64,000 nucleotides of DNA from an uncultured Candidatus Peribacteria bacterium (GTDB taxonomy: Bacteria; Patescibacteriota; Gracilibacteria; UBA1369; UM-FILTER-53-11). The stretch spans positions 10,306 to 74,305 of the forward strand of contig CAYHNW010000003.1 of the NCBI GenBank assembly GCA_964358095.1. Reading direction: 5' to 3'. Of this stretch, positions 38,856 to 43,435 are shown piece by piece. The position numbers were made by a program, and so were the translations under genes. The notes under the pieces are model-generated. The model did no database searches. It was not told the origin of the DNA and saw only the letters and a list, made by a program, of their open reading frames with translations. How positions within the stretch are numbered: the first letter of the stretch is position 1; every line of letters starts with the position of its first letter.

Positions 38856-39380
38856 CTAGACTCCATGAACAATCTTGAGCCACAGATGCTTTACCATTTC
38901 ATACGTGGCATGGGCAAGCATAGAGAAGAAATCCTTAACTTTACGCAGCTGCATCACCACTATGTTCAATTCGTAAGCGTGTTTGTGAGCATTTCCCTGC
39001 AGTTTACTCATCCTTTTGGCCAAAACCTTCTCCTCACTGTAAAGTTTTCGCTTAATCTCCCTGATCATGACCTCTTGTGGCGGTAGAGCGGCCAGCAATT
39101 TGGCACGAATCGCCTCTATCTCATCAGAGCTGTAGGATTTAGAACCGCCGCCCGCCGGAGCTTGTTTCTTATCTTCAGACGCGCTTTCTGAAACGCGTTC
39201 TCCCCCAAGTTCAACTCCTTCCGCTCCTTCTGCAGATTCTCCAGCTTCCAAAATCCGCGAAGCGGCTTTCTTTACCTCTTTTGCGGCTTGCGGCTTATCC
39301 CTTCCTTCTGAAGACCTCTTGGTTTCTGCACTCTGGGAAGACTCGAATTTTTCTCGTGATATGTTACCTGATTGATCCAT
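38856..39380 (-). CDS. Hypothetical protein (disordered acidic/Ser-rich N-terminal half, helical C-terminal half)
   Basis: 174-aa ORF, last gene of the transporter-STAS-phosphatase string. No recognisable motif. Confidence 0.5.
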   Translation of the reverse strand: MDQSGNISREKFESSQSAETKRSSEGRDKPQAAKEVKKAASRILEAGESAEGAEGVELGGERVSESASEDKKQAPAGGGSKSYSSDEIEAIRAKLLAALPPQEVMIREIKRKLYSEEKVLAKRMSKLQGNAHKHAYELNIVVMQLRKVKDFFSMLAHATYEMVKHLWLKIVHGV

Positions 39381-39424
39381 AAAACTGTGAATAAACTATA
39401 CTGTAATTTTGGCCGCTTGGCAAA

Positions 39425-40513
39425 TTATGTTCTTTTTAGCGCTATTAGAGTTATGTCATCGCCCTGGATTTGCTCACCGACAAAAGCGCCGAATTCTTTG
39501 GAAATATTCACAAAAAGCTCTTCACAAGTAGATGCTCCGGCGTATTGCTGAACCATTTTCTGCAACCTATCCAACCCAAACATTTCTCCCTGCATATCTT
39601 TTGCCTCAATGATGCCATCCGAATAAAGCACCACCATATCGCCGACTTCAAACGAAAGGCTTTCTTCCTTTATTATTTTTGTGACATCCGGAACCATTCC
39701 AAGTGCTATCCCGCCGGTTTGTCTCACTTCGCACTCGCCAGTTTTATTGTGGTGAATGAGTATATGTTCATGACCTGCACCGGTGTAGTAAAGTTTTTGT
39801 TCCTGAGTGTTCCATCTAAGCAGCACGCAAGTCATGAACCTGCGCGGTTCAATGCGCTGCTTCAAAATTCTGTTCGTATTCACGATTATGTCGTAGCCAC
39901 TTTGATAAATTTCGCTAAAGGTGCGAATGAGCGTATTTACCATAACCATAATCAGACCGGCAGGTAAGCCGTGACCCGTGACATCGCCAACGTAAACAAA
40001 AGTATTGACTCCGACTTTCATGACATCGAAACTATCGCCACCGACTTCTGAAGCCGGCCTGGTTTTTCCGTAAACCATAAGTCCCTGTATATCTGGCATT
40101 TCTGTAGGTAAAATCTTGTGCTGGATGTCACTGCCAACTGAAAGTTCTTTTGACATGCGACGCCCTTCTTCAATGTCAGAAGAAATTCTCTCCAGATTTT
40201 TTGTGACGTTATTAAAAAAATGCGCCAAGACACCAACTTCGTCTATCTTCTGTGTAAAAACTTTTTTGTAAGGGCGACCGGTGAGTAACGCTTTCATCTG
40301 TTGAAAAATAATTGCAAGTGGACGATGGATCAAGAAATACACAACCAAACACGAAAATATAAAAAGCACCAAAAATACGACCGCATCAAAATACTGCGCA
40401 GTATATTGGCGAACGTACGATTCTGATGCGTAACTCATAACGCCAATAAAAACAAACCCCACAAGCAGTGTTACAAAAGTTCTAAACGCCATACTCCTAC
40501 TTAAAAGATCCAT
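39425..40513 (-). CDS. Membrane-bound HAMP + PP2C (SpoIIE/RsbU-type) serine phosphatase
   Basis: 362 aa. Two TM helices, then a HAMP-like segment (HRPLAIIFQQMKALLTGRPY...VGVLAHFFNNVTKNLE). PP2C blocks GGDSFDV, VGDVTGHGLPAGLIM, LYSDGIIEA and DDITLIALKR. Confidence 0.8.
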   Translation of the reverse strand: MDLLSRSMAFRTFVTLLVGFVFIGVMSYASESYVRQYTAQYFDAVVFLVLFIFSCLVVYFLIHRPLAIIFQQMKALLTGRPYKKVFTQKIDEVGVLAHFFNNVTKNLERISSDIEEGRRMSKELSVGSDIQHKILPTEMPDIQGLMVYGKTRPASEVGGDSFDVMKVGVNTFVYVGDVTGHGLPAGLIMVMVNTLIRTFSEIYQSGYDIIVNTNRILKQRIEPRRFMTCVLLRWNTQEQKLYYTGAGHEHILIHHNKTGECEVRQTGGIALGMVPDVTKIIKEESLSFEVGDMVVLYSDGIIEAKDMQGEMFGLDRLQKMVQQYAGASTCEELFVNISKEFGAFVGEQIQGDDITLIALKRT

Positions 40514-40875: not shown

Positions 40876-40885
40876 ATGTGTATTA

Positions 40886-43435
40886 TTATACAGTTTTTAA
40901 TTTTTCCGCTAATGCGGATTCTATTGCGAAGAGCTCTTCGTGCTGATCGAGCAATTTATAAAGACGGCGAAGTTTTTCCAAAATATCCACGTCTATCTCT
41001 TCGAGCGACTGTTCGCCTTTTTCGCGCATTATTTTATTCAATTTATCGGAAATGGCGGCAACCAAGACGTGTTCCACCATGCGGCGTGCTTTTGGCTTGA
41101 GCCTATAAAAGAACCTGCGTAAAGATTCAAATTGTTCCGGTGAAAAAGATAGCAGTTTACCAAGCAAAATTTGAAAACCGGTTGGATCTCCCATCTTAGT
41201 GAGCGAAAATGCAGCCTCCAATTGCATATCCGAGTCTCCATGGTTAATAGCATCCAGCAAAATTCGCTTTTTTGGCAGACCTATTTCTCCAAGTGCAAAC
41301 ATGCCGGCCCTAAGAACCTCAGGAACGGAACTTTCAAGCATTTCATTAAGCAGGACTTCTAACCTCGCCCTATATTTTGAAAATTGCCAAAGCGCTGCGA
41401 TTGCGCTTGCGCGTACGCGCGGATTTTCATCCGAAAGATGTGGGAGTATGTAATAAGCTGCGTATGGATCATGGAATAGACCGATTGTAAAAACACAATC
41501 CGCACGCGCCTCATTTTCATTTTCTTTTAAGACTTCAAGCAGGAACGGCACTATATCGGATTGTTTTAGCAGTGAGAATACGCGAATAATCGCGCCGCGA
41601 ACCGATGAAGATTTCTCTTTCTTGAAAATATCTTTGAGAATTTCTATCATGCGATACCGCGAAAATGCCTGCGAGTAGAATTTGTCACCAATGTCATAAA
41701 AATTCATAAGGGCATGTGCGGCTTCAAGTCTCACTTCGGAATCAGGATCCGCCAATGCATCCAAAATATCTGGCAATGTACGATAGTCATGGAATTGGCC
41801 TAGTGCATTCAAAAGTTTTATTCTTACAAAAGGGGATTCGAGAACACCGGCGTTTTTGGGCTCAGCTAATGCTTCATTTAATTTATCCACAAGTATCTGT
41901 GGAGAATTTTTGTGGCCGCGTTGAGTCAAAATTTCTATCGCATTAATTTTATCCGGATACGGTAGATTCGAAAATAACTGCTCCTTTGAAATCTGCGTAT
42001 ATTTCGGTTGAAGTTTTATCGTTGCAATTAAAACCGCTGCCATTATCACAAACATAGTGATGTGTATCCACATGCTTAGATCCTTACCGGCAAAGAAGAT
42101 CTGAAAAAACAGCAAGAATAACATGCCGACTATTGTTCCCATCGGACGCACCATACCTTCTAGGAATTCAGCGGCTTGATCACGGATATTCTTGGGAAGC
42201 GCGTATTGAGAGCTAAAATAAGCATTTTTGTGCACAACATTTGTGACATCAAAACTCATCTTTGAAACTACGGCAGATGCAAAACCAAATTTCAGAAACA
42301 TGCCGATTAAGCTCATAAGCATAATAATCGGATGTAGCAGCAAGCTACCAACGACTCCAAGTGAAGTTATAAGACGCGATGCTAAGAGCACTTGCGCCAC
42401 CAATGCACCGGTATGAAATAACCCCTTCCATGCACCAAGTTTCTGCGTGAATGCCTTTTGTTCCTGCGTGGTCATGCTGGCGGTTTGCTGTGCGGCTTGA
42501 GGCGACGGCAAATTAGTGTTTACTGTCTGAGTCATCGCTGTCTCTGGTGTCAGAACAGCGGCCTGCATCTGTGTTGCATTCATTTTCAATGCAACCGTAG
42601 CCTCACGAGTACCAGTAATACTTTGTTCAATAGCCTTTGTATATTGGAACTCCAATACATTCATAAAAACCCATTGCAGTAAAACTATCATTATCAGCCC
42701 TTTCAAAAATGGAAATTGTTTAATACCCAAGAAAACCTGTTTGATCTGATCTGTCATTTTTTCTCTGGGCGATGCATTTACCCTAAACGGCAAAGGCGGC
42801 AGCGTACGCATGTAACTCGTAATTATAAAAATGACAATTACGCATGACAGGAACGCAATCCACACATACATGAACCAGCCGACGTGCACAGTAGACGCAA
42901 GTAAGGCTACCAAAATACCTCCAATGATACCTCCAATTGTTTCCGCAGATTCTATAAACGGAAAAGTCGTTTGGCTTTCAAGCGGAGTAAAGCGATCACC
43001 CACCAAAATCGGTATAAAAACATTGAATTGCGCCAAGAAAACTGATTCTGCCACAACAACGAGGAGAAAAAACATGATTGGCGATTTGTCGTACAAGAAC
43101 GAAGCAAAAAAGAGACAAATTGCGCCTATAAGTATCATTAAAATCATCAGCACTTCGCGCTTAATTCTCATAATGAAGCGCTCAAAAATAAAAGTGCTAA
43201 ACATTATCAGTATTGCGTTTACAATGAACAGCGCCGGCAAAAATGCTATGCCAAATTTTGCGACAAACGCTGCGGTTACGATTGTCCATCCAACCGCGGA
43301 TCCAACTTTAAAAAAGAAAGTTATAAGCCAACATTCTGTGACGCGCGGCCACTGAGAGGGACTGATTTTAAACAGCCTGCTCAGTAATGAGATGGAAAAT
43401 TTTTTTATCGCTATTGAGTTTGCGCCGTTTGCCAT
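40886..43435 (-). CDS. Polytopic transporter (MFS/TLC nucleotide-transporter-like) fused to C-terminal HEAT repeats
   Basis: 849 aa. About 12 hydrophobic helices in the first ~480 aa; the N-terminal region resembles ATP/ADP-translocase-type carriers as I recall them. The C-terminus has repeated D..VR..A..AL units (DPDSEVRLEAAHAL, DENPRVRASAIAAL, DSDMQLEAAFSL). Confidence 0.6.
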   Translation of the reverse strand: MANGANSIAIKKFSISLLSRLFKISPSQWPRVTECWLITFFFKVGSAVGWTIVTAAFVAKFGIAFLPALFIVNAILIMFSTFIFERFIMRIKREVLMILMILIGAICLFFASFLYDKSPIMFFLLVVVAESVFLAQFNVFIPILVGDRFTPLESQTTFPFIESAETIGGIIGGILVALLASTVHVGWFMYVWIAFLSCVIVIFIITSYMRTLPPLPFRVNASPREKMTDQIKQVFLGIKQFPFLKGLIMIVLLQWVFMNVLEFQYTKAIEQSITGTREATVALKMNATQMQAAVLTPETAMTQTVNTNLPSPQAAQQTASMTTQEQKAFTQKLGAWKGLFHTGALVAQVLLASRLITSLGVVGSLLLHPIIMLMSLIGMFLKFGFASAVVSKMSFDVTNVVHKNAYFSSQYALPKNIRDQAAEFLEGMVRPMGTIVGMLFLLFFQIFFAGKDLSMWIHITMFVIMAAVLIATIKLQPKYTQISKEQLFSNLPYPDKINAIEILTQRGHKNSPQILVDKLNEALAEPKNAGVLESPFVRIKLLNALGQFHDYRTLPDILDALADPDSEVRLEAAHALMNFYDIGDKFYSQAFSRYRMIEILKDIFKKEKSSSVRGAIIRVFSLLKQSDIVPFLLEVLKENENEARADCVFTIGLFHDPYAAYYILPHLSDENPRVRASAIAALWQFSKYRARLEVLLNEMLESSVPEVLRAGMFALGEIGLPKKRILLDAINHGDSDMQLEAAFSLTKMGDPTGFQILLGKLLSFSPEQFESLRRFFYRLKPKARRMVEHVLVAAISDKLNKIMREKGEQSLEEIDVDILEKLRRLYKLLDQHEELFAIESALAEKLKTV

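Follow-up and report, generated by a model that had tools for sequence, protein, structure and literature searches.

Linkage of a partner-switch phosphatase gene to a HEAT-tailed, NTT-like carrier gene in Candidatus Peribacteria, with a putative co-sensor role for the carrier

Partner-switching modules are generally interpreted as controlling sigma factors, and carriers of the NTT-HEAT type are without known function. In the Bacillus RsbU-RsbV-RsbW and SpoIIE-SpoIIAA-SpoIIAB modules, a STAS protein carrying a phospho-serine is combined with a PPM/SpoIIE phosphatase and with a small serine kinase of the GHKL type that has N, G1 and G2 boxes; each of the three has a counterpart in the genome described here. 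In transporter co-sensor systems such as BceAB-BceS, DctA-DcuS and LysP-CadC, a signalling protein that has two transmembrane (TM) helices with hardly any outer loop is encoded beside the transporter that supplies its signal, a layout that the present locus resembles. The Rsb network of Chlamydia trachomatis comprises a membrane RsbU, RsbW, RsbV1 and RsbV2, and the primary sigma factor has been proposed as its target (PMC4552016, PMC11619594). The NTT-HEAT clade is monophyletic and uncharacterised, and a cNMP-binding domain (cNBD) is often encoded right behind its members or fused to them (Major, Embley and Williams 2017, PMC5381601); our literature search found no later characterisation of the clade. 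Here we analysed a 64,000-nt stretch of DNA (the window; positions 10,306 to 74,305 of contig CAYHNW010000003.1, assembly GCA_964358095.1) from an uncultured Candidatus Peribacteria bacterium, in which the gene of a HEAT-tailed carrier (T) is followed by genes of a STAS protein (STAS1) and of a short membrane phosphatase of the PP2C type.

In the reading that we favour, with a probability of about 45%, the T-STAS1-PP2C operon would be the membrane input arm of a single RsbW/RsbV-type network, with T serving the phosphatase as a co-sensor or scaffold. Since a matching kinase is encoded elsewhere in the genome, the transporter is probably connected with the only phospho-switch of the cell, a switch without the usual sigma-factor target. 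Below, C, G, L and f numbers are our handles for contigs, genomes, loci and families.

The carrier, STAS1 and short PP2C genes

The first-pass annotation of the window had described four co-oriented, tightly spaced genes, and all four open reading frames (ORFs) were confirmed on the minus strand (Table 1), with gaps of 10 nt between T and STAS1, 2 nt between STAS1 and PP2C, and 44 nt between PP2C and an ORF of 174 amino acids (aa). A promoter-like site lies in front of T, within the 75-nt gap that T shares with the divergent murJ. No minus-strand terminator-like site was found from the end of the T coding region to the end of PP2C, and the sole minus-strand match falls inside the T ORF itself. 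We read T, STAS1 and PP2C as one predicted operon with the promoter-like site in front of T.

T consists of a membrane part of about 12 TM helices (residues about 25-490) and a C-terminal HEAT solenoid (residues about 493-848 in the AlphaFold2 (AF2) model), with Pfam matches to HEAT_2 (4e-26) and HEAT (PF02985, 6e-13). The model reached a predicted local distance difference test (pLDDT) score of 83.6 and a predicted template modelling (pTM) score of 0.82. Pfam MFS_1, of the major facilitator superfamily (MFS), was matched weakly (29.5 bits, under the gathering score of 33.4); the same family was matched in 27 of 30 T relatives, at best with 1e-12. Membership of Pfam TLC (PF03219) was rejected, as this family matched neither the protein nor anything genome-wide at E<=1, and it was also absent from the 25 Pfam families listed for the 30 relatives. 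A single-sequence search of the T membrane domain against PDB sequences gave no match. When a profile of the N-terminal 500 aa, built from 27 T relatives, was searched against PDB sequences, the only significant match was the Arabidopsis ATP/ADP translocator AtNTT1 (E 5.3e-5, 25 bits, about 160 positions). Foldseek matched the AF2 model of T to MFS carriers and placed the membrane domain closest to AtNTT1 (9j3l, TMt 0.66), by a narrow lead over other MFS proteins (0.63). The first-pass annotation had left the choice between TLC and MFS to a later check and had considered the case that the carrier imports nucleotides. The membrane domain is MFS_1-like by Pfam, with TLC unmatched and AtNTT1 as its only significant PDB relative, and nucleotide translocators appear to be the closest characterised relatives of T, in line with that possibility. 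Homologs of T were found only in Peregrinibacteria, 'Peribacteria', Gracilibacteria and Patescibacteria metagenome-assembled genomes, and searches started from distant T homologs also gave matches in Patescibacteria only, with none in another phylum.

STAS1 matched Pfam STAS (PF01740) with 2e-15 and scored 62.4 bits against NCBIfam TIGR00377, above its cut-off of 53.45, which places it in the anti-sigma-antagonist superfamily. The conserved serine context read from the sequence was borne out by alignment, in which a serine of STAS1 falls on SpoIIAA Ser58 within the context INSEGIG. This serine is invariant in 37 of 37 orthologs of STAS1 and of STAS2, a second STAS protein of the genome; the two proteins form separate clades, and STAS1 is the faster-evolving of them.

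The short PP2C matched Pfam SpoIIE/PP2C (PF07228) with 3e-45, and its best NCBIfam match was SiaA-like (3e-14; 52 bits against a cut-off of 700). TM1 (residues 8-33) and TM2 (39-62) are separated by a 5-residue loop and followed by a linker (63-134) and the PPM/SpoIIE domain (145-361). Of the TM-HAMP-PP2C architecture proposed earlier, the two TM helices and the PP2C domain were recovered; Pfam HAMP gave no match in the linker, which we therefore call HAMP-like. The AF2 model (pLDDT 80.7) has a helix (39-78), a connector (79-91) and a second helix (92-134) ahead of the PP2C fold. All 22 orthologs of the short PP2C share the order of TM helix, very short loop, TM helix and HAMP-like segment, the loop being about 8-15 residues by hydropathy. 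None of the four PPM metal-site motifs is missing, and D160, D177, D299, D352 and D353 are invariant. The closest folds were the PP2C domains of RssB, SiaA (6k4e, TMt 0.8), Rv1364c and SpoIIE, all of them phosphatases of partner switches. The short PP2C has no sensor domain and essentially no outer loop.

Table 1. Features of the carrier locus and its surroundings (positions in the window)
Feature	Position	Strand	Basis
T, 849-aa carrier with HEAT tail	40886..43435	-	ORF, Pfam, AF2, fold and profile matches
STAS1, 119 aa, SpoIIAA/RsbV-type, anti-sigma-antagonist-like, putatively phosphorylatable Ser62	40516..40875	-	Pfam, TIGR00377, alignment
Short membrane PP2C, 362 aa	39425..40513	-	Pfam SpoIIE/PP2C, NCBIfam, AF2
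174-aa protein, disordered N-terminal half, helical C-terminal half, no Pfam match	38856..39380	-	ORF
Promoter-like site upstream of T, TTTACA-17-TATAAT (11/12)	43475..43503	-	Consensus match only
Second promoter-like site, ahead of the 174-aa gene	39423-39395	-	Consensus match
Terminator-like match inside the T ORF	43161-43149	-	
Region-4-only sigma-like protein, 360 aa	35497-36579	+	

Switch components elsewhere in the genome and across the class

The locus had been described as a half-module with no kinase or sigma factor nearby. Locally this held, and neither HATPase_c_2 nor Sigma70_r2 was matched on the contig of the window. The genome does encode a kinase, so that the idea of a kinase-less half-module had to be given up. 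The assembly (1.05 Mb, 25 contigs, 97% complete) encodes two STAS proteins, two phosphatases of the SpoIIE type and three proteins matched by HATPase_c_2, among them a single RsbW-like kinase of 181 aa on contig C2 with intact ATP-binding motifs (HATPase_c_2 about 39.4-39.8 bits), whose best NCBIfam matches were RsbW/SpoIIAB but under cut-off. The N, G1 and G2 ATP-binding boxes are kept in 21 RsbW orthologs. On C2, at about 27.0-29.3 kb (L001:1139-3380), the kinase gene lies in an operon of a chorismate-mutase-like gene (CM2), RsbW, STAS2 and a PrsW-like intramembrane protease, and genomes throughout the order keep this CM2-RsbW-STAS2-PrsW operon. The STAS2 proteins of family f4 are extended at the C-terminus and are 176-363 aa long. 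The two other HATPase_c_2 proteins (C19:7894-8940, 348 aa; C1:107488-108447, 319 aa) were rejected as additional RsbW kinases, as they are not RsbW-like by NCBIfam. In the second phosphatase, a long PP2C of 521 aa on contig C8, the two TM helices enclose an outer domain of about 175 aa.

The sigma factors of this genome are RpoD and three of the extracytoplasmic function (ECF) type, and no sigma-B/F-type (group-3) sigma was found in it; for this type, the absence that the first-pass annotation had noted locally holds genome-wide. The kinase is thus encoded elsewhere without a matching sigma. In Bacillus, PrsW is the site-1 protease of an ECF anti-sigma factor, so that, by analogy, the switch may have an ECF sigma as its output.

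We searched 201 genomes of the class and fetched and compared 40 T loci. T was present in 87 of the 201 genomes and in 23/23 of the order, where it belongs to a conserved block of PrsW, STAS2, RsbW and CM2 (on one strand), rpsB, tsf, ribBA, ribD and murJ, and then T, STAS1 where present, PP2C and queA. Also within the block shared with the carrier are ribBA, ribD, nadA and nadC, which represent partial riboflavin and NAD pathways (own genome, window and relatives). The short PP2C lies downstream of T in 22 of the 23 order genomes, with G091 as the exception, and STAS1 stands between them in 13/23 (families f1, f4 and f5). The RsbW-STAS2 operon is found 3-10 kb from T in 21 of the 23 and is relocated only in the window's own family. 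Each genome of the order has one RsbW, one short T-adjacent PP2C (save G091) and one long PP2C.

A scan of GTDB species representatives, overlapping the class survey, covered 80 loci: T-PP2C in 33, T-STAS-PP2C in 32, T-STAS in 1 and T alone in 10, the remaining 4 being cut by a contig end. PP2C follows T in 65 of the 76 informative loci, with STAS1 in between in about half of them, and the gaps in the T-PP2C string are mostly -23 to +14 nt, often with overlapping codons. STAS1 is missing even from L069 and L071, close relatives in the window's own family. The results showed that the constant neighbour of T is PP2C, not STAS1. The linkage of STAS/PP2C genes to the transporter, which had been left to be checked in relatives, therefore extends well beyond this genome, in the order as well as among the species representatives, and synteny of STAS with the transporter was found rather than its loss. 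The proposed four-gene string is conserved as to T-PP2C, STAS1 is missing in about half, and the 174-aa gene is separate. One relative has an additional 228-aa ORF between carrier and PP2C (L102:7322-8008).

Outside the order, two further arrangements were found. In family f21, STAS follows T after 18-28 nt in G016, G056, G123 and G066 (18-23 nt in the first three) and after 385 nt in G032. No RsbW or PP2C homolog was found in the f21 genomes G016, G056, G123, G032 and G044, and these five retain a single STAS with the serine. T is missing from the congeners G044, G086 and G115, which have a PAS protein of ~220 aa in its place, flanked by a MiaB-like gene and the orthologous STAS; the PAS version (L058:2726-3773, L059:6042-7200, L060:245-1412) and the carrier version (L034:8921-11778) thus occur in one genus. 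By its position, this alternation appears to place T in the slot of a sensor. In family f7 (G001), an RsbW::STAS fusion follows T after 12 nt and is itself followed by STAS. The locus L061:1-2284 has a carrier, a natural RsbW::STAS fusion of 274 aa, a single-domain STAS and a type IV secretion system (T4SS) pilin-like ORF. T is tied to switch components in three different arrangements, those of the order, f21 and f7. At the remaining class-level loci, T is flanked by unrelated genes, for example dnaA, glycosyltransferases or a methyltransferase.

The fourth gene of the string, which the first-pass annotation had counted to the module, was rejected as a member of it and groups with nadA-nadC instead. 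The 174-aa protein had no Pfam match. Its 55%-identical ortholog precedes nadA-nadC, while queA and a MATCAP gene separate that ortholog from PP2C, and the string of the 174-aa family, NadA and NadC recurs. In the genomes compared, this family of ~170 aa (L053:11800-12318 is a second member) is always upstream of nadA-nadC, and its members have a disordered acidic N-terminal half and a conserved helical C-terminus that ends in HLWLKIVHGV.

The sigma-like gene nearest to the module encodes a protein in which sigma region 4 is combined with a HARE-HTH domain (RNA polymerase (RNAP)-delta-like) and region 2 is absent. It was rejected as a specific target of RsbW, being present in 44/44 class genomes, including those without RsbW or PP2C. 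Its identity is 45-73% across the class, and its distance from T is mostly 20-35 kb. We regard it as a probable housekeeping factor that associates with RNAP in these bacteria of the Candidate Phyla Radiation (CPR). A paralog exists in the order (C9:13695-14711 in the genome of the window).

Readings of the linkage

According to the co-sensor model, the state of the carrier, either substrate occupancy or flux, would set PP2C activity via TM contacts or the HEAT solenoid. The short PP2C would dephosphorylate STAS1-P, and also STAS2-P where STAS1 is absent, while RsbW would phosphorylate both STAS proteins. Dephospho-STAS would then capture RsbW, so that the target of RsbW would be freed; this target would not be of the sigma-B/F type but might be RpoD, one of the ECF sigmas or a protein other than a sigma factor. 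STAS1 might also feed back on the carrier through the HEAT tail. The role of T as co-sensor or scaffold is suggested by the short PP2C being without a sensing domain of its own, and we favour this model because T has PP2C rather than STAS1 as its constant neighbour, because the other PP2C of the genome has an input domain and the short one has none, and because the PAS sensor and T interchange upstream of the same STAS in f21.

A different reading, close to that of the first-pass annotation, makes the transporter the output: STAS1 would bind to the HEAT tail as a phospho-regulated accessory subunit and thereby gate transport, with RsbW and PP2C setting its phosphorylation. Precedents are the regulation of SulP carriers by STAS domains and that of the Mla transporter by MlaB, and STAS1 has a weak mlaB_1 match. 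The f21 genomes that keep the serine-bearing STAS directly behind T without any RsbW or PP2C (G016, G056, G123) would fit such a subunit, as would the absence of a sigma-B/F-type target from the genome of the window, and NTT-HEAT carriers elsewhere precede or are fused with a small regulator domain, the cNBD (PMC5381601). However, STAS1 is absent from about half of the T-PP2C relatives, even within its own family. The f21 congeners keep the orthologous STAS beside a PAS protein without T, no fusion of T to STAS or to PP2C (Rosetta-stone search) was found among 123 T homologs, and STAS1 scores above cut-off as an anti-sigma antagonist. With the PP2C lacking its own sensor and PAS replacing T upstream of the orthologous STAS, we do not favour gating, conceivable as it is, and regard it as rather unlikely.

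The co-sensor model must also be weighed against the absence of any functional coupling, in which case the gene order would simply have been inherited in a compact, slowly rearranging CPR region, the switch would act on transcription like Chlamydia Rsb, and PP2C would itself sense a membrane or cytoplasmic cue. Several observations speak for this explanation and against ours. The unrelated housekeeping genes rpsB, tsf, ribBA, ribD, murJ and queA are equally conserved in the block, with overlapping codons, and queA likewise overlaps PP2C, so that adjacency and tight spacing alone are no proof of function. T is kept in G091, where the short PP2C has been lost; T has no switch neighbours in most other families; and class-level genomes that have both T and the switch often keep them apart. 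Moreover, the three arrangements may go back to a single ancestral cluster and need not have arisen independently. Yet these arrangements occur in different flanking contexts, STAS1 stands exactly between T and PP2C, and PP2C is without any input domain. We consider the lack of coupling rather unlikely, on a par with gating, and retain the co-sensor model as our preferred reading.

Relation to known systems

Our literature search found nothing that connects HEAT/MFS or NTT-HEAT carriers to partner switching, no work on partner switching in Patescibacteria, and no prior description of a partner switch that lacks a sigma-B-type target and has its phosphatase arm linked to an NTT-like/HEAT carrier. 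Compared with the Bacillus modules, the genome lacks a sigma-B/F sigma, the kinase is encoded apart, the phosphatase is membrane-anchored and encoded behind a transporter gene, and the RsbW and STAS models fall far below the NCBIfam equivalog cut-offs. The SiaABCD system of Pseudomonas aeruginosa (the HAMP-PP2C SiaA, the kinase SiaB, SiaC and the cyclase SiaD) resembles the present one in its membrane HAMP-PP2C, which there acts in a partner switch with a non-sigma output. It differs in that no equivalog score was reached here, no diguanylate cyclase gene was seen beside the module, and SiaA is not paired with a transporter. In SulP/SLC26 proteins, STAS is fused to a carrier of 7+7 TM helices, whereas STAS1 is a separate gene and T is MFS/NTT-like.

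Like T, members of the NTT-HEAT family have an N-terminal carrier and a C-terminal HEAT part (PF13646/PF02985), with a small regulator directly downstream (PMC5381601). That family is, however, defined by Pfam TLC, which matched neither T nor its 30 relatives, and the genes downstream of T are STAS and PP2C, not cNBD. HEAT-tailed NTT-like carriers might more generally be docking platforms for interchangeable regulators (cNBD; STAS, PP2C, RsbW), with the carrier as a transceptor input, so that import of a host metabolite, possibly a nucleotide, would be relayed through a sensor-less PP2C into a STAS/RsbW signal and on to a non-sigma-B target, e.g. RpoD; this wider view is speculative and, in our estimate, improbable as a whole. 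The conserved operon offers a testable hypothesis as to which partner binds the HEAT tail, what feeds the switch and what is fed by it. Should the carrier import nucleotides or some other metabolite of the host, the system would show how CPR episymbionts sense the supply from their host. The known co-sensor cases use histidine kinases or ToxR-like regulators, whereas here a PP2C would feed a partner switch, and the coupling is putative.

A parallel can also be drawn with the Rsb network of Chlamydia. We know of no transporter linkage for Chlamydia Rsb, and chlamydial RsbU has a periplasmic ligand-binding domain, to which only the long PP2C on contig C8 corresponds, the T-adjacent PP2C having its 5-residue loop instead. 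Both systems combine a reduced, host-dependent genome with one kinase, two STAS proteins, one or more membrane PP2C phosphatases and dispersed genes, and both do so without sigma-B.

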